DNA of 62,240 nucleotides, the filler included, from Platydemus manokwari (lineage: Eukaryota), in NCBI GenBank assembly GCA_037951405.1. It is 5 parts of 5 records of this genome, joined end to end, with 100 filler letters (N's around TTAATTAATTAA, not from the genome) between each part and the next. Parts side by side here need not be neighbours in the genome. Positions count along the whole stretch, not along the records: positions 52,648 to 62,240 come from JBBMOY011227987.1; 4 more parts are not named here. One strand, written 5' to 3'. Below are positions 6,638 through 60,579 of this stretch, piece by piece. The number at the start of each line of letters is the position of its first letter. The stretch's first letter is position 1. Both the position numbers and the translations under genes were made by a program. Below the pieces are notes generated by a model, which saw nothing but the letters and a program-made list of their open reading frames with translations, ran no database searches and was not told the origin of the DNA.

Positions 6638-7756
6638 TTACAATACCGTTTCTGTTTCATCGTTCAATTTCATTTGTATCTCATCATCCCCGAATTGTTC
6701 ATCAAACTGTTTTTCCATTCTCTTATTTGTCGTTAAACAACGAGACGATGTGATATTGTTTTTGTGACTGGCTTTTGAGATTTGTTGTAAAAGTGCTCCT
6801 CGAAATATTCGATTTGATACAAGATAAATCAATAAGTTCATGCTCGAATCGACATAGATCGAAATGTTGGCCAGAAATGCCAAATGATAATTGACGTCGA
6901 CATTGGAAATGATGTGACTGTTGTGGAATAGTTTCGAAAAGAAAGAGGGCATTTCTAATGTGAAAAATGTAACACATATAGCAACAACGAGTTTGTCAGC
7001 AGCAAACGATTTCTTTTTCTGATTCGGTGTAGTACTGCTTCTTCGAAAGTTTAGGCTTTGACGAATTTTTTGCAACATTAAAACGCTTAAAATATTTACT
7101 GATAGTAAAGGAATTCCAATCTGAATCAAGAATACAAACACATTCAGGTATATTATTCTATATAAATAAATATTGCTTAAGGCTTCTGATATATTGACAA
7201 CGTCTCCAGTTTGTATGCAGTACGTATATGATTGCTCAAACATTCGAGGAAATGCTATCATAATAGCTATACCAACTATTCCAATAAAATAATGATTTAT
7301 ATTCATTGATGTCACATAACGCTTAGTACATAGAGGATAACAAATACATTCAAATCGATGGAAAGCCAATAAGATGATCCATGTATTTCTTGCTATCAGA
7401 AATCCAACCGAAAACAGATAAATGCAACGAAACAATGCATCCATGATTACCGGTGGCACCAATCTTAATGAAATGAGTATTTCGTCTATTTTAAGGAATT
7501 CAACCAAATAAAACAAAAGTAAATTCATTTGAAATACCAGTTCAATGAATGAGAATCTGGCTAAAATTTGATTCATCAATATTGGCATACGCCATAGGTA
7601 TTTGGAAAATATACGCAAAGCAAAGCAATTGGCAAAACTATTTACAAACAACAATACAATGGAAATTAGTTGATATACATCTTGTGAACTTTTGGAAAGG
7701 AATAGACTTGAATTACTATTCCCCGAACAATTATCCACAACTTCAAAGAATTGCAT
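6638..7756 (-). CDS. Intronless class A (rhodopsin-like) GPCR, peptide-receptor-like orphan (FMRFamide-receptor/srw-like, flatworm orphan type)
   Basis: 372-aa ORF with 7 hydrophobic segments and an N-terminal glycosylation site (NCS). TM3 end LAFHRFECICYP is the DRY equivalent, TM6 is VTFFTLEMP, TM7/helix 8 is DSSMNLLIYLVSNRIFR (NPxxY equivalent). Confidence 0.9.
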   Translation of the reverse strand: MQFFEVVDNCSGNSNSSLFLSKSSQDVYQLISIVLLFVNSFANCFALRIFSKYLWRMPILMNQILARFSFIELVFQMNLLLFYLVEFLKIDEILISLRLVPPVIMDALFRCIYLFSVGFLIARNTWIILLAFHRFECICYPLCTKRYVTSMNINHYFIGIVGIAIMIAFPRMFEQSYTYCIQTGDVVNISEALSNIYLYRIIYLNVFVFLIQIGIPLLSVNILSVLMLQKIRQSLNFRRSSTTPNQKKKSFAADKLVVAICVTFFTLEMPSFFSKLFHNSHIISNVDVNYHLAFLANISIYVDSSMNLLIYLVSNRIFRGALLQQISKASHKNNITSSRCLTTNKRMEKQFDEQFGDDEIQMKLNDETETVL

Positions 7757-15309: not shown

Positions 15310-15409
15310 NNNNNNNNNNNNNNNNNNNNNNNNNNNNNNNNNNNNNNNNNNNNTTAATTAATTAANNNNNNNNNNNNNNNNNNNNNNNNNNNNNNNNNNN
15401 NNNNNNNNN
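15310..15409. other. Assembly gap linker
   Basis: 44 N + TTAATTAATTAA (stops in six frames) + 44 N. Confidence 0.99.
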
Positions 15410-17944: not shown

Positions 17945-18272
17945 TCATATTAATCCGGGATTTATCCTCATGATACAACTATTTCCTATTTTGACACAAT
18001 AAATTTTAAGTAAAATTTAAATGTGTTCGAATCCACTAATGAGAGAATTATGAAAATCCTATTCTGTTAATGATAAAGATTAGAAAACTTATCTATTAGA
18101 ATACTCACTGTAATTATCACCAATGATTATTCTAAAACCTCTCAAAACCTTTAAATCCATTCCACATTTGATTCACATTTTATAAGTTTTTTACATTAAT
18201 ATTTATTATCAAATATCATTTATAGATAAATTCAAAATTATTGATTATCAAATATTATTACGTTAACGTCAA

Positions 18273-19256
18273 ATGAAAGATAATACTCCACCAGGACTGT
18301 ATAAAAAGAACATTAACTATTCCCAATGTAAACAACCGACTTTTGAAATTTACGAGAAAAAGGAATTAGGTAAAAAAGATTGGCTTTTACCGTATCGTAA
18401 AGCATCTTTTCGAGTGACTTCCCACTTTCGATCAAAATCAAAATCGGTACTCATACCAAAATGGATAGACAATTTGCATTTACACTTGGCAGATATTATG
18501 CCTAAATCACCACCATATGTACCAAAATTACTCCAATATTTCGTCAATCGAATTGAATTAGAATTGTCTGAAGGAAAGATTAATATCAATAATTATGTTG
18601 TCAAGATTGATTTTAATCATCCTTCAGTTCTGATAATCAAGAATTATGTTTTTCAGGAAAATAAAGATTTCATAAATATCGATTACTTCAACAACCTTCA
18701 CATATCGTGGATCATAAACATGTTGAAATTAATACTATTTCTTCTTCGAAGTAAACCTCTGATAATTCAAAGAATTCCCTTGCTTAAGATCATTGAACAA
18801 CCATTGTTCGATAAGTATCACCGACCAAATATTAATATCAAACCAAAGTTATCCGATATTTGTATGAAACTAAGCAAATCAGATATGGACACTTTAGGAT
18901 TTTTAATGGTTCATATAATACACTTTTGGAAATACGATTACACACCAACACCAGTGAAAAATCAACTGGCCGATGTTTTCGGATCTTTGTTGATTACATT
19001 TACTATTGAGGATCTTACCACAGACGATTCATCAAAAAGCCCAGAAGCTGCATTATTAGAAGTGATATTGGAAGTGTGTGATTATCATTTTTGGTATAAA
19101 TTAACTCATAATAACATTATATATTTATTTGACAATATAAAAGGAGATAGCTTGCAAAGTAAACCAATAACTGTTGATAGACCAATTCATCTGTCACCAA
19201 TCATTTACTTCACTGGATCGATAACTCAGTCGTATTCAGAGAAAGATGGTAACTAA
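18273..19256 (+). CDS. Intronless RacGAP1/CYK-4-like RhoGAP-domain protein, probably catalytically inactive
   Basis: 327-aa ORF. LADIMPKSPPYVPKLLQYFVNRIE, DTLGFLMVHI, NQLADVFGSLLI and LLEVILEVCDYHFW parallel RacGAP1 [45 protein letters not shown] and VERLLSLPLEYW. The GLYR arginine-finger motif is absent. Confidence 0.75.
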   Translation: MKDNTPPGLYKKNINYSQCKQPTFEIYEKKELGKKDWLLPYRKASFRVTSHFRSKSKSVLIPKWIDNLHLHLADIMPKSPPYVPKLLQYFVNRIELELSEGKININNYVVKIDFNHPSVLIIKNYVFQENKDFINIDYFNNLHISWIINMLKLILFLLRSKPLIIQRIPLLKIIEQPLFDKYHRPNINIKPKLSDICMKLSKSDMDTLGFLMVHIIHFWKYDYTPTPVKNQLADVFGSLLITFTIEDLTTDDSSKSPEAALLEVILEVCDYHFWYKLTHNNIIYLFDNIKGDSLQSKPITVDRPIHLSPIIYFTGSITQSYSEKDGN

Positions 19257-25039: not shown

Positions 25040-25801
25040 TTAACTGTCTGTCACCGGACGTGTATTGACCCATTCAGAAACATCAACATTTGCATGAAGA
25101 ATTCTTTCGCGTAGTTCTTTCAGTTTGGGAAAGTCGTCATACAAAACTGGTAATTTCATCAGGAAATCAGTCATTACAATAAAATACAATTCGGCTAGCG
25201 AAATATTCGGGCCAGAAAAGAATCCAGTTTCTCTGATAAAACTTTCAAGTACCTGAATGAATATGGTCAAAATAATTACATTCTCAGACTTATTGCTTTA
25301 CTTCAAGCAAATTTCTACCAGTGTTATTTACAAACTCATTTCGCAGTTCTTCTTTCTTTTCTTCTGGGACATGGAACGATCTATACATTGCTTCCATAAT
25401 ATCTGTGATCTGCAGATATTTAAATCGAATATTAGAAAAGAAATATATAGATTTATTAACCTGACCAATTGCTCTTTCTATTAAATAATATTCCGCAGAA
25501 TCATTACCCATAAAACCATGTTTTTTAGCCACCATTCGAGCGATTGCCATGCTTTGGGTGAGTTTTTTATCTTCATACTCAACAACAGGCAAAGTTCCAG
25601 TGGGTGTAGTTGGTTTTAGAGCGGGCCAGTCTTCGCGTTTTATTCTCACGTCTTCAAATTCAATTTTACTAGCTTTTAAAACTAGTCGAATAATCTCTGC
25701 CTTTCCTCGTGCATCGAAATAGATTACCTGAACGTTTGTGTACTTTTGGTTAAAACAATGGCGACTGGATAATAATTATATCAAACCTTAATCTTAGACA
25801 T
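25040..25801 (-). CDS. gst: Glutathione S-transferase, sigma class (Schistosoma 28-kDa GST-like), 200 aa. Exons 25801-25787, 25727-25461, 25409-25302, 25252-25040
   Basis: Spliced product MSKIKVIYFDARGKAEIIRLVL...EDVRIKREDWPALKPTTPTGTLPV...QSMAIARMVAKKHGFMG...ISLAELY...FPKLKELRERI...RPVTDS, with the catalytic Tyr. Three GT-AG phase-0 introns of 59, 51 and 49 nt. Confidence 0.95.
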
Positions 25802-27966: not shown

Positions 27967-28066
27967 NNNNNNNNNNNNNNNNNNNNNNNNNNNNNNNNNN
28001 NNNNNNNNNNTTAATTAATTAANNNNNNNNNNNNNNNNNNNNNNNNNNNNNNNNNNNNNNNNNNNN
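27967..28066. other. Assembly gap linker
   Basis: N44-TTAATTAATTAA-N44. Confidence 0.99.
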
Positions 28067-37930: not shown

Positions 37931-38030
37931 NNNNNNNNNNNNNNNNNNNNNNNNNNNNNNNNNNNNNNNNNNNNTTAATTAATTAANNNNNNNNNNNNNN
38001 NNNNNNNNNNNNNNNNNNNNNNNNNNNNNN
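37931..38030. other. Assembly gap linker
   Basis: N44-TTAATTAATTAA-N44. Confidence 0.99.
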
Positions 38031-49533: not shown

Positions 49534-50413
49534 TATTTCATCTAATATCATTCTGTTGAAAATCAATTTAAAAATTAATTGAAATACTTATCACTTTGAT
49601 CAACTGAATCAATGGAAATGATGTTACGTAACTGAGAAAAATCTAATTACGAATTATAACAAACTGCTAAAAATAGATTTGACAATTCTAGTTCGACTAA
49701 TGAAAACTGGAGGCAAAACTTCATTGCTTCCATTTATTTTCCAATTTATTCATAATTTAATTTATTTAAGTAATTTATTAAACACGCCAAATGTCACCAT
49801 TTTTCTTGAGTGAAGTACTATCAATCCAGCTTGGTTTGTATTTACATAAAAACTTTCATTAACATCATTCAACAACAATTTCAACCATTAACCACCATTA
49901 AAAATAATTGTTAGCAGACGCGATTATATCAACGAGTATCATTTTAATCCACTAAAAATCGACCACAATTCCCAATGTGGACATTCAATATTTTCCAAAA
50001 TATAAATTGTCATAAAGAATTTAATCGATTTATGATTTCTTAAATACACAAACCGAAAAACAACTACCAACTCTTTCACCATTACATGTGAAATCAAGAT
50101 TTCTGCCTGAAATATTTACATTAAAAAAATATTTGAGGTTTTTCAACCGATAATGAATTTTAATAACAGACTGATAAAGGAAAACATTTTATACGTTTTT
50201 GTTTTTTATCAATTTATTATCTATTAACCATTGGAAAAACGTGAAATTAAAAAAATGATAAAATTTTCTGGTTATTCCGAAAATTGAAAAAACAATTGAC
50301 TTGATAGAACGATAATTTGAAAATTTTTGAATTTTTCTTCTACTTTGGTTTTGGAAACGTACTTTGAGAAATATGTTATTTTCAAATGAGATTTTTTATC
50401 AGATCTAAATTGA

Positions 50414-50899
50414 TATATGATTGAAACGAGAGTTCTGTCCGATAGAAAATTAAATTTATTTAACCAATAAAGAAAATTTGTAAATTGAGAAATATAAACA
50501 AAATATGATTCGTCTGTTAATCTGAAATGTTAAAAATAATCACCTTTAAGATCCACACACTTTTTCCAGCGTTCTGGAAGTTGTTTTATGCCGTTTTCAT
50601 AGACTTTCCCAGGTTTTAAAGTGAGCCACTTGTCCAAATCGTCGTTAGTGAGTTTTTAATAGAAAACACATTAATGTCTGAAGGGGCAAGGTCTGGGGGG
50701 TGTGGTGGATGCTTATTTTGAGTTAAGCGTGTCGTATGCGATCGAGTGTTATCGTGAATGAAACTAAACATTTCTTCACAAAATACTGAAATTTTTACAG
50801 ACTATTGATATTTTGTTTATATCTCCAATTCACATATTGTCTTTATTGGTTAAATAAATATTATTTTCTATCGGACAAGACTTTCGTTCCAATCCTGTA
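50414..50899 (-). mobile_element. Internally deleted mariner element with ~105-bp inverted termini
   Basis: Minus strand encodes HDNTRSH, HPP..PDLAPSD and YENGIKQLPERWKKCVDLKGDYF* (mariner C-terminal motifs). 50414-50520 and 50795-50899 are imperfect inverted repeats bounded by TA. Confidence 0.88.
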
Positions 50900-52547
50900 T
50901 TATCTAAATCATTGAATTGAAATGATTTTCTATCATTTATCTTGCAATTTTAAAACATTGTTTTAAATATTCAATTTTAGCGCTACTTTACAACATGAAA
51001 ATCCATGATGTTTAATTAATTTTATTAAAAATCAAAAAGTAAAATTCACAGTTTAAATCGATATTTTTACATATTATTTGATTATATTATTCAATATGTA
51101 AATTTATTAATCGATTTAAGAATATCAAATCAATTCGAGCAAATCCCTAATTATTGATGATAGCGAATAAAAATTTAGTCTTTTGACTTTAAATCTATTT
51201 TTAAAAAATATCTCAAACGTCAGTCAATAAATAATTACAAGCGATGAGATATGTTGGATTCACCTATCAGTTAGAGGCTGTTTTGTTATTTGGCATAATT
51301 AACCATAATTTATATTTAATGTCTTGTAACTAAAGCAAATTATCAATACATTTTTGACAAGATTCAAATTGCTAGTAACAAATGATTACAATGACACATG
51401 ATACGATTAATATGGTATCAGGAAAGACCGGAAAATTTTACATAAAACTGTCAATCATAATGGAGAGAAATAAAGTATCATTTTATTAGTAAAAAATGTG
51501 GACACACTAACAAGATATTTTTTTAAAATCCATGTTCAATTTAGACTTATGAAATATCTATAATCAATTTCAACAAGTGTGATTTTATGATCATTTAATT
51601 TACACCATCGATCTCACCCAGGGAAAATAGTGACAGGAAACCAGAATTGATATGAACAGAAATTAATAAAAACTATTTACCATTAAAGAATTATAAACTG
51701 GTTTAAATTATTCACAATAGATTCGCTATTAATTAAAAGTGGATTTTGTCGTCATTCACGCTAGCACTGTCATTTATGTCATCTGTTTTTTGTAAATCAT
51801 CTCTCCTATCTTTTTTCTATCAATCCAACAAATCAAATCCCATCACATTTGCCAATGTTAATAACAAATACTAAAATCGAAATTTATTTCCTGTAGTGAT
51901 ATTTATATTTACTTGAGTTGTAATTTTCGACTTATGTAATATCGAAAATTATTTCCTTATCGTCTTGTTAGGAAAATGTTTTAAATGATCTGAAATACGA
52001 AGTTTAGTTTATTAGCTCGTTTTAGTGAATCGGTTTCACTTACAAAATCAACCTTTCATTTCAAGACTTCTTCGTTGGATGTAAATGTCTTTCATTTGTA
52101 TAGGATTATCGAATTTAACTTGACTTATTTCACACAAGCAATTGTTTTGTAAACTGTGACAGTTCTGGTGTAAATGGTGACAAAATTCATTTTTAATTCA
52201 AAGTGAATCTAAGATATGGCATTGCTTGTATTTATTTTCCGAATAATTTCATTAATTTTGATCAAATATTATTCCATTAATAAAACAAAATCAATTCGAA
52301 AACACATTTGAATGTTATAAATATATAGGCTTAAATTATGTAAAGGGGTAATTTGACCTACTTCATTATAATGAAGGTTCGCACATGAGATAATTTTATA
52401 AGTTACTTTTATATATAACTGCTATGTTTGATTTATTTCAGTTAATATTTCATTTTTAAGATGTCTAATCGTGACAAAACATAGTTTTAAAACCAAGTTC
52501 CCATTCTAATCACAACACTTCTATATGATTATTTGAGTTTTTAAATT

Positions 52548-52647
52548 NNNNNNNNNNNNNNNNNNNNNNNNNNNNNNNNNNNNNNNNNNNNTTAATTAAT
52601 TAANNNNNNNNNNNNNNNNNNNNNNNNNNNNNNNNNNNNNNNNNNNN
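52548..52647. other. Assembly gap linker (truncates env and supplies its false stop codon)
   Basis: N44-TTAATTAATTAA-N44. Confidence 0.99.
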
Positions 52648-54278
52648 CCCACTACTCTAGCGAATGTTCCCTTATCATCAAATATTAACGGGGCTATAAG
52701 TTCCGGATTTGTCACTGCCAACGCTAACTTTGTCTGCAACACTTTCCTCCTTAGTTTACAATCGTTTAACATCATTTCCATATACATTTTCTCTAAATAC
52801 CCTTGGTTGAGATGGTAAAAATAGTCAAGCTTGTTGTTAAAAAACTGAGATAACTTGATATCCAGTTTATCTACCGTTGTCTTAGCATCTTTTATCTCGT
52901 TCGTACTTAAATATATACCTTTATAGTTTGTTGCTATAACCTGCTGTGCACATTTCTTATCTATTCCCTTGTGAACAAACCTCATGGCACTACTCGTCTG
53001 GTCGGCCATGTACACTATTGGTGTTTCTTTCATCCTAATTTCTACTGTCTCTGTTGGTGCATCCAAATTCAGTTCCTTGGAGAACTTAGTTTCTTTGAAC
53101 ATCTTTCCTTTAATTTCTCTAAATTTTGTCTTTTTGAGCAACGTTAATGGGCATTTGTACGGATTATTTTTATACATAATTAACGATTCCCCTGTATCAC
53201 ACGTTGAATTATCATACTCGCAATGCCTCCACGTGGTCATTCTCTTTGTTTTTGCATCAAATATAGCCTGATATTCCCACAATTCTATAATATAATGCCT
53301 ATATGCCACCACGTTTTTTACTTCTTTTCCGTCTATCATGTTGTCTTCTCCCTCACTATTTCCCCCATGACTAGACCATCCTGCTTGATTTACCGTATAT
53401 CGGTTTATTCGTCCTGGAGCCACTATCACTTGTATCCCTTTTGGTATTTGGTAAGTTCCCTTTTCGAATGCGGCTTTGCAACTTTCTACCGAAGGTATTT
53501 CCGGTACTGGCAACCATGCGGGTACCAGTGTTACTGTGTATCCTCCTCTCTTGCATGAACAATGGAAAAGCATTTCTTGATATGCTATCTTCCATTCCCT
53601 TGCTTTTTCAAATAAAAATTCGGATTCCTGATACACATACATTTCCTTTGGTCTCGATTGTGTAATATTCACTGGGTATGTCTCCGGGCATTTTACAATA
53701 TCCAATAGAGAATTTTTTTCCCCCATCGTGCTACAGTCATATCCACTAATTCCAGCATTCACGCCACCTATATTACTTATCACATATATCGCGAATAACG
53801 TCTGCACTATTGTTGCCAATGTAAATCCTGCTCCTCGTACCGTTGTTTCACGCTCTGGCTTTCTCATTCCTTTTAATAACGTGGTAACTACTGGGGTCCA
53901 TCCCCCTAACTCGTTTACCATGTCTTCGTATTCATCAAATATTATTTCTGCTTCTTCGTCAATGTTTATTACACCCTTATCAACGTGATTGCTCAATGTT
54001 CTCAGCGTGAGTGCTATTTTTCCCACTGTTTTTTCTCCTTCATTTAACGACTTCATCACTATTTTAAACTCCTCTTTGTTATTGCACTGTTGCATTTCTT
54101 TTAATGAATTTTTAATTGGTTTTGTTAGCTTACTTAACCTATTCACTTGCTTCCGTTCGTTCCACCTGAGCGTACATGGTAATTTATTTACTGCTCTCAC
54201 ATACTGTCTCATTTTTTCCATTTCTTTGTCTTCTTTTTTTAGGTCTATTTCCTGATGTATGCTGAAAGATTGTTCCAC
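52648..54278 (-). CDS. env: Envelope glycoprotein, chuvirus-G / herpes gB-type (class III fusogen), 3'-truncated
   Basis: A hydrophobic signal (FTLATIVQTLFAIYVISNIGGVNA) is followed from 53753 by GISGYDC...SLLDIVKC...CKAAFEKG...CEYDNSTCD...CPL...KCAQQVIATN...NNKLDY...CKLRRKVL..KLALA..NPE.IA.LI...GTFARVVG. This is the Cys/motif pattern of chuvirus-like glycoproteins (GYDC..SLLD..C; C...L...LA..P.....G..A...GE). Confidence 0.85.
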
Positions 54279-57200
54279 TGGTACTTGGTCTGTTTTCTTC
54301 TATTCTATTTACGGGTATCCTAACCGATTCTGGATTTTTCGCTTTATTTGTTGATCCTACTGGTCTACCACGCCTTTATCTTAGGTTTCTGCATTAGTTT
54401 GCTGTGAAGTATGTGTTTGTTGGCTTTCATTTAATAATTCTGGATCAAGATATTGGAATAGTTCCTCATGATTGTCGTATCTCTCATGATTTTCTTCTTC
54501 TAGCGCTTTTGGCAATTCCTCTTCTTCTTTCCTTGGTGGCTCTATTACCTCTTTTTCTCCATCACTTATTTCCTCTAATATGACGTCCTCCTCTTTTTCT
54601 ATTGTTTTACTACACTCTCCTTCTCTATACAGATATACTATTTTCTTTCTTGACACATTTTCTTGCTCCTTGCTAGTACTGCTTTCTAGCTCCAGTGCCT
54701 CCTTTTGCTCCTCTTTAATTATCTCTTCTCGTGGTTCCGATTTTTCTTATATCCTTTCTTATTTGGACACATATTTCTGCTTTCCTATACATCCTAGACA
54801 TAAGTACTTCTTTTCTATTTCTTTTTGTAGCTGATTCTTTGGCATTCTTTCTATCATATCCCTTCTACTATCTCTTTTCTTCGTTCTCAATCCTAATGCC
54901 TTCAAAAAGTCCTCATTGGAATTTAATTCACTTGATTTAGAGTTTGCTGATTTTGGAGATTTCGCCTCACTACTTTTTGTTACTGGTTTCACTTCTTCTT
55001 CGTCCAAATCCACTCCTATTATTTGATTGGCATTTATATATAATTCCCTTATTTCTTTTTCAACCGGTTCCTTATACTTAATCAGGACTCCTAAATTATT
55101 TAAAATTGCACGGTTTAAATGATATTGTTCTAACAGATCTCTACTTCTCAGTCTTACCCCTTTGTTATAAAGTGTAATACTTAATTTATTGACATGCTCT
55201 CTCATTAGGAAATTTTGTCTAATGTACTCCTTCATTGTTTCCACTACCACGTCTCCTGGGCAACTCATTATGTGATCTTTCTCCTCTGTCCACGGACTTT
55301 CCAATATCTTCAATTTAAACGGGTAACAGTTATAATCCATTCTACCCCTATGTCTTAAATAGACTCGCTTTTCTGATAACTCATAATCCTTTAATTGACT
55401 CCCTTCTACAAATAATTCTTCCCTTCTTTCTCACGTTTTATAATGATACATGAGATATCCATTCTCATTCCTATCTGGCCATAGTTCATCTGCCCAATTT
55501 AATATGAATCGTATTTCTGCCGTTTCCAACATTCTTAAATTTTCCACATGTGGCTGTCCGTGCTGTCTCGCCACTAGATGCAGGTGTATTACTTGCTAAT
55601 TGTTTATTGTTGCAGGTAATTCTCCCCATTTTACATCATGCGTGAATGGTAGTTCTGGAATGGTTGAACTATTGAACGGTCTCCATTTAAAAAACGTTTT
55701 AGCTTTTCGTGTCTCCCATGTTGATCCTTTTCCTTGATGGATCATGACCTCCACAACATTTCGTCTTTTTCTTTTTATTAAATAATGTCTGCATGTTGTG
55801 TCATCTTCAATAAACATACCGCGGTGTATTAGCTCTACCAAGAATGGTTTGAACGTTACAAATGGCCACATTGCCGTTGCCATCTGTCGTTATCTTCGTA
55901 TACTCTCTAATTCACTCCTCATCCAAAAGTCATAAAGTTGTCGTCTCTTTTTCAGGCTTGATTTATCTTTATGTCTTTTCGTCTCAACATCGCTTGTATT
56001 TTTTCCTGTGTTTCTACCGTGATTTTTTCTTCACCTAATATTGATATTATTACCCGCAACTTTTCCATTTCGTCTCTTGCATCTGGCTTCCTGACACACC
56101 TCATCATATTCACTCCCTTAAATTTTTTCTTCCTTCCGCCATTCGCTTTTTTTATAATAATATGCACTATAATGCGCGATTATAGTTAGTTCATTATGCA
56201 TTTTTTGCGTCATCCCTAAATCACTTAATATTACTTCTTCTGTGACTGGTGTTCCCTTATGCCATGTTTCTACTCCGCATTCTGGATTTTCCTCATTAGG
56301 CCAAAATCCAAATGACCATTGCAATATCTCGCTTATACTTGTATCATCATCTATTGTGAGCGACTTTATTGTTGTTCCCCCTTTATTATTTTTTAAATTT
56401 ATTTGCAACGTTAGCTTTCTTTCTTCGTGCGTTAGCTCCTCACAATGGCTTCCTGGATATAATTTGACAATTCCATTTTCTATTATTCCATTTGGATATC
56501 TCTTTGGTTTTTTCATTACCACTTTTCTGTTTATCTGTCCCCGTCTTCCTTGCATGAACATTATTATTTCATCCAAACCCGGTACCCATTCGTCTGTCTA
56601 TCCTGTATATTTATATTTCCATCTCTGCTCCATTAACAATTCCAATTCCGGTACTGTCTCTTTTCCCTTAGTGGTTATCCACTCGTAGTGACTATCCTCT
56701 TCTTCGCTTACCATTTGGAACTCTATTATCACTCTTCCTTCTGCTCTTTTTAAATTATCTCTTCTTCTTTCTATATCATCGAAAGCTACTCCTCCTCTAA
56801 CCGTAATCTTTATTTGTCCCCTATATCCGTATACTGGCTGTGTTCTTATCCTTATTTGCTCTGCTTCCCTTAACACTGGGCATCGTTTAGCTACATCCTT
56901 GTATATCCTATTCATCGAATCATTCAGATTTATTTTCACATAAATTTGTGTCTTAACTCCATATCTATCTTCTACCAGAATTGCCAATTCGTATTCTCCT
57001 TCTTCTACGTTTCTTCTGGGCTCTTCTTTGTCATCCATTTTATCATATATTCCTTTACTTTCTAATATTTTCATCATCAGCTGTTCTGCCCATACTTTTT
57101 TTTCTAAATAGTTTGTTTCCATGGTATTTGCCCATTCCGGGTATGTGACTACAACTGTATCTCTTCCTTGTGGTATTGGTAATCTTTTGCATGTTCCTAT

Positions 57201-59001
57201 TATTTCTCCTTTTTCTTCCTCTTTATTCATTCCTATCATCGACTCTTCCATTATTATCTTGCTTCCTGTTGCTGTTAACTGAATTAATGAGTATCCTGCT
57301 TTCTTTCCCAGTTTCTTAACTCCTACTAAACTCTGAAATTCAAGAGCATTATTTTTTCTGAAAAACGGCATCCCTATTCTCAGTTTCTCTTCCTGTGTTA
57401 ATAATCTTTTCAATCGGATTATTACGCTTGATGGTTCTAATTCACCTTCTCGTATGTAATCTTCTGCACATTCCACTATTCTCCATACTTGAGGATCGAA
57501 ATTTCCTTCTCTTCTTTCTCTAATTCTCTTTTCACTTGATGTTTCATTCATTAATTCCCTAAATATATCTATCAACGTCTGTACATTAATGTGATCCCTA
57601 TTATCCTGTGTTAACTTCATCCACAGGCCATCTTTATCTTCCTGTGGCAACTGTTTCCATATCCTATCCATTTTTTCATCGATATTTCCATATCCCTTTT
57701 CACATCTTCGTAGCTTTTCTACAAGCTCGTCCATGGCTTGATAATCAATTTCCCTATCAACTAAATATTGTCCTGCATATCCAACATCCCTATTGCCTGT
57801 AGCGTGTCCTTGCATTGTTACCATTTTCGATGGGACGTATACTGGTGATGTTGCTGACACATTTAAAACCTTTGGCACTATTCTTTCAATTATAGGCATT
57901 GTTAGAGCTGGTTTTACTGGAATATTGTACAATATGAGCGCTACTGCTACTTTGTATTGCTTTTTCCTTATTATCTTCTTGAACCTGCTTTTCTTGTATC
58001 TTTATCATCCCGTCTTCCTCCTTTCTATCCTGCGATTCATCAATTACCCGTTCGTGATTTCACATGCTATATTTTACTGGTCTTCCTTTCTCCTCTGTGA
58101 CATCCACTGATTGGACATCTTGTTTTTCTTCCCTTATCTCATTAACTTCCTCTAATGAACTAACTTCTTCCATATCTGATTCTGCTTCTGTCTCCAATTT
58201 GGTGCTATTTTCATCCGCTGTCGCCTTGTTTGACACCTCTTCACCTTCTTTTTCCACTAATTGGTCTCCTGTTTCTGCCAGCTTAAACTCTTCCTTATTT
58301 ATGTTAACATTCTCCCAAAATTGCTCATATAAGGGTATTCCCGTTATTTGACTTAACGTGTAGTTCATAAACCTTATAAACCTCACATTAATTTTATCCT
58401 TGTCTCTTTGTGTTAAACTTTTCCATGATGTATTATATTTTTCTATCTCAACATATTTTACCCAGAATTGTCTATATTTCTTTATCTGCCCCACTAATTT
58501 GTCATTATCTACCTCATACCATAAATCACTACCATCTCTTCTAACAAAGATTTCCCATGACGGTTTATAGGTTTTACTGCCGGCATCATCATCGGGCTTA
58601 CAACCAGCGTCATAATGGGTTTCCATAATAAACAACTCATCCATCGAATTCAACTTCAATTCTTTTACTGTGGGCATATTTTCTAATATTTCTTTTACTA
58701 ACTCCTTTTCTTCTTGATCACCTTTCTGCTTCATCGCCTCCATTTCTTGCTCGCTATTAATCATACATATGTTGAGAGCTTCATCTTCCTCCCCATAAAA
58801 TGTTTCTTGTCCTGGCTTCAAATTGTTTACCGACGGTTTCAGCATTGGCTTGGTGTGAATTATTGCGTACATATTATCTGGCTCATACTGTGAAAAACCT
58901 TGATCTATTATATATGCATTATCTGGTAATTCATCAAACTTGAAGAATATTGCCATTTTTTCCACTATCCTATTCTTCTCTTTTTCCATATACTGTGTCA
59001 C
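54279..59001 (-). pseudogene. Retroelement accessory polyprotein region: orphan domains, possible inactive protease-like segment, four ubiquitin-like domains, AT-hook
   Basis: ORFs 58060-59001, 56598-57932, 56118-56576, 55952-56167, 55596-55883, 54759-55340 and 54381-54656 join through one or two in-frame stops or single frameshifts. No RT (Y/FxDD in context), RNase H or integrase motifs were recognised. Confidence 0.7.
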
Positions 59002-59639
59002 TAATTTCCGTATTTTCCTAACCTTTTCTACCTATTGTATCGCTTTATCTGTTTTCTTTATTATTGTCAACGGTTTGTTCTCCTTATTTTTCTTCTTATT
59101 GAAATTTTCGTACTCCGTGTTCATACATACTACCTTTGACTCTACCACTTCCGCTAATCGTGTTGCTAATTTTTTTCTTAATGTTTTCACATCATTATGT
59201 GCCACCGCTTCTATGGCTTTTTGAGATCCCTGTGGACTGTTCTGCCTTTGTCTACACGTGGTTATTGCATGTCCAAATTTATTACAATATTCACACTGGA
59301 TTCTTCCATTGCTATTCACCCTATCTCTTCCATAATTACTGTATTTTGTTTGATTATTGTCATAATTTCTTCTGTTATATCTTTCTGCTGATTGACTTCT
59401 GGGTCTATTACCCCTTTGCATTTCATTATTATTATTAGAATTATTATAATTGCCTCTATAATTTCTTCCTTGGTCATCAAAATTTCGATTAAATTGTGAA
59501 TAGTTATCATTATTATTATTTCCCCTGTAAACACAATTATTCGATGAGCTTCTGCTCCTATTATCATTATTATTCCTATTTGGACATCCATTTCTATCAC
59601 CATTATATCTATTGTCACTATATCTTTGTTCATTTCGCC

Positions 59640-59655
59640 TATAATAATAATAATA

Positions 59656-59708
<53 letters not shown>
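59640..59708. repeat. AAT/TAT microsatellite inside gag (poly-Asn, poly-Tyr)
   Basis: Trinucleotide run, in frame with gag. Confidence 0.95.
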
Positions 59709-59709
<1 letters not shown>

Positions 59710-60503
59710 CCTTCGGTATATATTGTCATTATACCCCCGATCATTTTGTCGATAGCTACTATAATTATTATTCCTATTATTATCCCGACTCCTCGCGTAT
59801 TCATTATTAACGTTCCACTTTAGGCTACTTTGAAATTGCGTTAAAATTCTACTTAATTCGGACCATTTTACATTCAAATCAGGGTCCTTTTCATCCTCCT
59901 TTGTCACTCTTTGACTTGACTTGGGCGGCGGGCTCAATCGCTCCGGTTCCGCAAACGTTACAGCATTCACTACAGGGAAACTCATCCCACAGTATTAAAT
60001 CCTCTATTGTTGCACATTCCGCTATTGCTAGTATGCTCTTGAACGCACTATTGATTCCTCGTTTAAATTGATCCATAATTATTCTTCTTCTTCCTTCTTT
60101 TGTAATCAATGTATCATCATACGCTTTTTCAGCCAACCTAGTTAATTCCATGGCATATTCTTGCGTTCCTTCTCCTGAACGCTGATACCGATCCAAAAAT
60201 TGTCTGGCATAATATTCATGAAGATCCGAATCCAATACTATCCGTTTTCTTAATCCCTTAATTATATCCTTAAAAATTACTTCACTCCTCTGTAAATTTT
60301 TATCTGTCTGCATCATATTTTGTTGCTCTTGGAGGGCATAGCCCTTTAAATATAGCGGCAACCGCATTACTTTATTATTATTAATCCATCTATGAGCCGT
60401 AGCAATACACTCGAACTCCTCAAAAAATCGTCAAATAGCTCTTGCCGACCCTCAAATGGGGTTATAGACAAATAAATTAATTTACCGAACTCGTTGTCCG
60501 CCA

Positions 60504-60530
60504 TATTATTATTATCATTATTATTATTAC

Positions 60531-60579
<49 letters not shown>
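60504..60579. repeat. AAT microsatellite inside gag N-terminus (poly-Asn)
   Basis: Trinucleotide run, in frame with gag. Confidence 0.95.

Follow-up and report, generated by a model that had tools for sequence, protein, structure and literature searches.

A tandem array of predicted ubiquitin-fold domains in a broken, envelope-carrying retroelement copy from Platydemus manokwari

The window analyzed here is a stretch of 62,240 nucleotides, filler included, that joins five parts of the Platydemus manokwari assembly GCA_037951405.1. It is AT-rich, animal-like DNA with a GC content of about 26%. From ~61,000 to 52,650, in the part derived from record JBBMOY011227987.1, the minus strand is purine-rich and its GC content is 30 to 41% in most 400-base bins. 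On this strand, the frame spanning 58001-52650 contains 12 stops in 1,784 codons, while the other two frames contain 210 and 149, and it is therefore coding. The frame ends in a glycoprotein B (gB)-type envelope (PF24664, E 3.1e-24, 85 bits versus a cut-off of 27), in agreement with the retroelement polyprotein setting proposed in an earlier note on this DNA. The element is a retroelement with an envelope gene, present here as a broken copy. Between the gag-like region and the envelope of this decayed polyprotein frame lies what is very probably an array of ubiquitin-fold domains (Table 1).

The number of stops implies ~1 to 5% substitutions per site since the polyprotein frame was open. Some of the main-frame stops are clustered where another frame stays open for 62 to 75 codons, and several breaks in the polyprotein frame are therefore likely to be frame changes. 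The 75-codon run falls in the array; the shifted frame is likely the coding frame there, which would place one frame change at either end of the run. Downstream, the element is cut by a gap, beyond which the composition is back to host-like. No pair of long terminal repeats (LTRs) and no LTR-like direct repeat was found within the window.

Likeness among five candidate units was evaluated by a pairwise repeat test (10 valid unit pairs). Unit 2 resembles unit 5 (z 5.6, p 0.0005, gapless over 56 columns) and unit 3 (z 5.4, p 0.001), and weakly unit 4 (z 2.2, p 0.04). Unit 1 shows no repeat likeness to units 2, 3, 4, and 5 in this test (p 0.11 to 0.54). When each unit was scored with hidden Markov model (HMM) profiles that left it out, unit 2 (p 0.001), unit 3 (p 0.004), and unit 4 (p 0.003) each ranked above 34 of 34 control windows, and unit 1 obtained no score. 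The corresponding HHalign E values were 2.6e-4, 0.021, 0.044, 0.098, and 0.4 for units 2, 3, 4, 5, and 1, with 0, 0, 1, 4, and 15 of 28 controls, respectively, scoring as high; the first of these is the value at which a profile built from units 3, 4, and 5 recovers unit 2. The gain in ubiquitin score on adding unit 1 to the profile exceeded that of 25 of 25 shuffles with one alignment mode but was surpassed by 2 of 25 with the other, and a PDB search with this unit gave one match, which was unrelated.

These results uphold the internal duplication that the earlier note had read from the sequence. The peptides it quoted are all present, in one minus-strand frame and at most two codons from where it had placed them. 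Also present are the L-x-D/Q-Y/L-x-hydrophobic motif in units 2 to 4 (LSDLGM, LKDYEL, and LEQYHL) and the IxxILxWxxxxWP motif common to units 2 and 3. Its count of four units needs revision: units 2, 3, and 4 are related as it held, but unit 1 is without independent support and a fifth unit, at 55946-55737, had been overlooked. Similarly, unit 3, which the note had placed between two in-frame stops, begins after the stop at 55598 and has the stop at 55433 inside it. We conclude that the array comprises at least four related units, in the order 2, 5, 3, and 4, all of predicted ubiquitin fold. Two other candidates seen by eye were rejected: the one at 56687-56445 failed all tests (HMM, HHalign, profile, and Pfam), and the one at 56176-55955, in the shifted frame, was not ubiquitin-like in any test.

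The structure of unit 2 was predicted from an alignment that consisted of the element's own units only. The model (predicted local distance difference test [pLDDT] score of 65) has a beta-grasp with beta-beta-alpha-beta-beta-(alpha)-beta topology, a topology also borne out by VIA comparisons. As the earlier note had anticipated, a Foldseek search with the model returned beta-grasp proteins, with mouse UBL3 first (E 7.7e-4), followed by ubiquitin, SUMO, and ISG15; the E values of ubiquitin and SUMO are within twofold of that of UBL3, and UBL3 has rank 32 in VIA. Moreover, profiles built from the element's own units retrieve ubiquitin from the PDB. The ubiquitin-like fold claimed in the note is thus predicted for unit 2 from its model and, through their sequence likeness to unit 2, may be extended to units 3, 4, and 5, whereas single-sequence AlphaFold models of units 5, 3, and 4 (pLDDT 32) yielded no fold match.

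Single units gave no significant sequence match in Pfam or the PDB. The only direct family hints come from unit 5, which matches PF00240 with an E value of 0.13 (12.5 bits versus a cut-off of 25.4) and the Rad23 N-terminus, at model positions 45-85, with an E value of 0.025. In ESM features, unit 4 scores 0.86 to ubiquitin-family clusters (ranks 13 and 18), which we treat as a lead. Comparison of 73 viral ubiquitins with the units yielded 3.7 bits at most and no family-level match to conjugated modifiers, and single-sequence PDB searches with unit 1, unit 2, units 5 to 4, the helical domain, and the capsid-like frame returned unrelated matches only (E ≥ 0.12). The units diverge from ubiquitin by ~80%, far above what decay explains. 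A C-terminal Gly-Gly is absent at the ends of all five units, as the earlier note had observed for its own four; unit 3 ends in LRHRG-R. With no Gly-Gly end on any unit, conjugation can be excluded, and deubiquitinases are unlikely to cleave the product of this copy.

Table 1. Features of the retroelement copy, listed in the direction of its minus-strand frame
Feature	Coordinates	Strand	Basis or remark
Gag-like region with a capsid-like part and an Asn-rich linker; interrupted by frame changes	59035..60504	-	Capsid assigned solely by eye and from its position
Single CX2CX4HX4C zinc knuckle	59254..59295	-	Read directly in the sequence
Accessory region, from gag to the array, with a frame change near 58001-57886	57000..59031	-	Long open frames
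Unit 1, a doubtful member whose pattern looks beta-grasp-like by eye	56712..56993	-	No repeat similarity
Unit 2, ubiquitin-like beta-grasp domain by prediction, without internal stop	56172..56420	-	Fold model
75 stop-free codons, shifted frame	55955..56179	-	Longest run in the frame with 210 stops (next 36); two stops here in the main frame
Unit 5, ubiquitin-like; first strand not evident in main frame; stop at 55892	55737..55946	-	Likeness to unit 2
Unit 3, ubiquitin-like; internal stop 55433; tail-like end without terminal Gly	55344..55595	-	Likeness to unit 2
Unit 4, ubiquitin-like, head-to-tail with unit 3, no internal stop	55074..55325	-	Leave-one-out tests
Helical domain whose GKIAL and GGW motifs, ahead of a hydrophobic tail, look Bcl-2-like by eye	53850..54230	-	By eye and position as in Burro; unconfirmed
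Hydrophobic segment that likely anchors the product in the membrane and provides an internal signal for the envelope (putative role)	53751..53828	-	Read directly
gB-type (Monjiviricetes) envelope glycoprotein, cut by gap at 52647	52650..53750	-	PF24664
Gap	52548..52647	.	N runs 52548-52591 and 52604-52647; pol and 3′ LTR outside the window

Upstream of the array, the gag-like region contains long open frames at 60430-59891 and 59994-59032 and has no gag match in Pfam or PDB searches. Its zinc knuckle gave weak zinc-finger matches in Pfam (E 0.008 and 0.13). Trinucleotide arrays at 59656-59708 and 60504-60579, at and within this region, encode runs of poly-Asn. The accessory region that follows is without a meaningful family match in Pfam and PDB searches. 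On the other side of the array, a CxxC motif (CLGC) at 54810-54760 (minus strand), after unit 4 and close to a pair of stops, may belong to a zinc-binding motif that has been broken. Further along, at 54375-54189 (minus strand), a shifted frame is free of stops for ~62 codons from RRGRPVGSTNK, while the main frame has four stops, and is likely the coding frame there; its start, which we take by eye to be AT-hook-like, belongs to a peptide with no Pfam match. By eye, the GKIAL and GGW motifs of the helical domain resemble those of Bcl-2 proteins, a likeness that is not confirmed: three PDB/Pfam searches gave no Bcl-2 match for this domain.

The order of these features resembles that of the giant Ty3/gypsy elements Burro/GYPSM1 of planarians, whose single polyprotein is described as Gag, MATH, Ubi2/SUMO-like (PF11976), BCL2, mononegavirus-like envelope, protease, and reverse transcriptase (RT), with the Ubi2/SUMO-like domain before BCL2 and envelope published in 2019 (PMC6431247). 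Burro is also characterized by protease, dUTPase, RT, RNase H, and integrase after the envelope, by long LTRs, and by a size over 25 kb. Like Burro, the element has one long frame with an N-terminal Gag (here gag-like by eye and position), a ubiquitin-like domain, a Bcl-2-like domain (here by eye), and a mononegavirus-like envelope in the same order, and its ubiquitin-like domains and envelope follow each other in one frame, ahead of any pol. In contrast, the accessible text on Burro describes a single Ubi2/SUMO-like motif instead of an array, two to three CCHC knuckles where we read one, and MATH, BIR, and ankyrin motifs, none of which Pfam detected here. A 2026 survey describes the GAG-ENV-POL elements of Platyhelminthes as having gB-type envelopes only (PMC13524379). 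The herpes simplex virus (HSV)/gB-type envelope of such errantiviruses is what we found here, and, as in Smed_errantivirus_1-6 of that survey, it comes straight after the gag side with no pol between. By eye and unscored, the motifs GWSS.GG, CDTGES, and YMAD..AMRFV.KG are shared with the envelope of Smed_errantivirus_3, the nearest of the six. Unlike our account, the available text of the survey leaves accessory domains undescribed: its main text never uses the words "ubiquitin," "SUMO," "Bcl," or "Burro," and "ubiquitin" is likewise absent from seven supplements. It also sought gag within 5,000 nt of the envelope, whereas the gag-like region here is ~5.3 to 6.7 kb upstream. Taken with the window, these descriptions suggest that the element is likely related to Burro and a member of the Ty3/gypsy group with gag-env-pol order, with a flatworm as its presumed host and pol presumably beyond the gap.

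UBL3 and its membrane-anchored ubiquitin-fold (MUB) relatives deserve comparison as the family of the best Foldseek match of unit 2. Like them, the units have a (here predicted) ubiquitin fold without Gly-Gly and likely lie near a membrane. MUB proteins are described as carrying a C-terminal CaaX box (PMC4996978, PMC10511055) and, before the last strand, a lap-bar loop of consensus (K/R)xPFG that carries inhibition of E2 enzymes, and MUB3 uses a Gly of the beta3-beta4 turn in E2 binding (PMC4996978). In contrast to these free 120-residue proteins, the units are integral and repeated; being internal to a polyprotein, they have no CaaX box at their ends, and (K/R)xPFG occurs in none of the unit sequences. 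We rejected the WP loop as a counterpart of the lap-bar loop, since the latter precedes the last strand and requires PFG. Ubiquitin-like (UBL) domains are also integral in the deubiquitinase USP7, which combines MATH with five UBLs. Compared with its C-terminal UBL arrays, the element has no protease domain and no demonstrated sequence likeness, and other beta-grasp domains match at least as well; a USP7-like origin of the array was rejected, as there is no MATH match in Pfam.

Because the units have neither Gly-Gly ends nor UBL3/MUB hallmarks, they are likely built-in binding modules instead of modifiers. We see about an even chance that, in a Burro-like element, the array acts as a set of built-in modules that are not conjugated and bind host proteins of the ubiquitin system; given the array itself, a binding or decoy role is moderately favored. 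A single ubiquitin-like domain, captured long ago, may have been duplicated within the element, and its fold pattern and open frame would have been kept until recently despite ~80% divergence from ubiquitin. The hydrophobic segment before the envelope would direct the envelope into the endoplasmic reticulum, while the part upstream would stay on the cytosolic side, held at the membrane on which the envelope is made. In that position, the array could present several ubiquitin-shaped surfaces beside the possible Bcl-2-like domain, and these surfaces may occupy or recruit ubiquitin-binding proteins, such as ligases, deubiquitinases, or sorting adaptors, by which the polyprotein would be protected or budding aided. 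The earlier note had put forward decoys, ESCRT adaptors, and processing signals as putative roles. Arkhipova and Yushenova suggested that Burro may interfere with host apoptosis and ubiquitination and urged tests (PMC6431247). As a tentative conjecture, an enveloped flatworm retroelement lineage might have expanded one captured domain to four or five membrane-tethered, divergent copies. Selection would then have retained these copies as a multivalent mimic by which ubiquitin-pathway proteins of the host are trapped or redirected, a kind of counter-defense or budding module so far known from large viruses.

Several limits apply to these findings. The copy is dead and cut short, a ubiquitin-like domain at the same position has already been published, and the function is putative. 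Each single test is modest, the fold model covers unit 2 only, unit 5 fails the leave-one-out tests (weak HMM score, p 0.11; HHalign E 0.098), and the failure of two further by-eye candidates in every test implies that judgement by eye over-calls here. The points on the units speak for a reading in which only unit 2 is a ubiquitin-fold domain, the single one noted in Burro, and the others are chance patterns. We consider such a single domain improbable in view of the likeness of unit 2 to units 5 and 3, the scores of units 3 and 4 above every control window, and the recovery of unit 2 by a profile of the other three.

If the domains are real and repeated, they could still order the polyprotein or particle through PB1-like head-to-tail contacts, or as rigid linkers, with no contact to the ubiquitin system. 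Such self-assembly or spacer domains are unlikely in our judgement: sequence profiles and ESM features favor the ubiquitin and Rad60-SLD families over PB1, UBL3, ubiquitin, and SUMO head the Foldseek matches, and OPCA, the acidic motif of PB1, is not evident by eye. The units might instead be processing signals, after which a host deubiquitinase or UBL protease cuts to release the downstream protein, much as ubiquitin inserts do in pestivirus polyproteins. The end of unit 3 aligns with the ubiquitin tail LRLRGG and is followed by Met and, head-to-tail, unit 4, and polyprotein fragments of bovine viral diarrhea virus (BVDV) are among the viral fold matches. Yet Gly-Gly stands at no unit end, units 2, 4, and 5 lack any tail likeness, and the unit bodies have probably diverged much too far from ubiquitin to be recognized in the usual way, which makes processing an improbable role. 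Descent from UBL3/MUB, with units that attach to the back of UBE2D-type E2s at the membrane and thereby dampen ubiquitin charging, would account for UBL3 as the best Foldseek match, for a counterpart of the beta3-beta4 turn Gly in units 2, 4, and 5 (HKG, NKG, and HRG), and for a last loop that, in alignments, is longer in these units than in ubiquitin. With the slim lead of UBL3 in Foldseek, its low VIA rank, and neither family hallmark in any unit, we regard this descent as very improbable.

What is already known is the single ubiquitin-like domain at the same position in Burro, as described in the accessible text (PMC6431247); the tandem array appears to be new. We found no tandem ubiquitin-fold array in a retroelement in the literature, although Grohme 2018, Jurka 2007, Repbase, and the Burro domain figure, which lie outside the comparison, may show more than one such domain. 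The accessible parts of PMC12440569, PMC8532177, and PMC11410931 contain no description of such an array. No homologue was found for the array region among proteins of 981 to 3,122 aa (6,126 candidates), for the envelope frame among proteins of 964 to 2,750 aa, or for the five-unit profile among proteins of 42 to 170 aa; a phmmer search of 57020-55050 against 1.84 billion representatives returned 0 matches at E 0.001, and the envelope had no match in viral and metagenome contigs. The copy suggests that the ubiquitin-like cargo went beyond a one-off capture, with repeated duplication and later diversification, a hint of selection. Units 2 and 4 offer two unbroken 85-residue domains that could be expressible for tests with host partners.

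Elsewhere in the window, no tRNA genes were found. The gaps at 15310-15409, 27967-28066, 37931-38030, and 52548-52647 share an identical build (44 N, 12 bases, and 44 N) and are assembly artefacts. Coding features include an intronless frame for a rhodopsin-family G-protein-coupled receptor at 6638-7756 (minus strand, 372 aa, PF00001, E 9e-8) and an exon for the N-terminal part of a glutathione S-transferase at 25290-25775 (minus strand, PF02798, E 3e-12). A 329-codon open frame at 18267-19256 (plus strand) has no significant Pfam match and is RhoGAP-like by eye. Finally, inverted repeat arms at 50413-50520 and 50794-50900, ~85% complementary and separated by ~270 bases, resemble a small non-autonomous DNA transposon.
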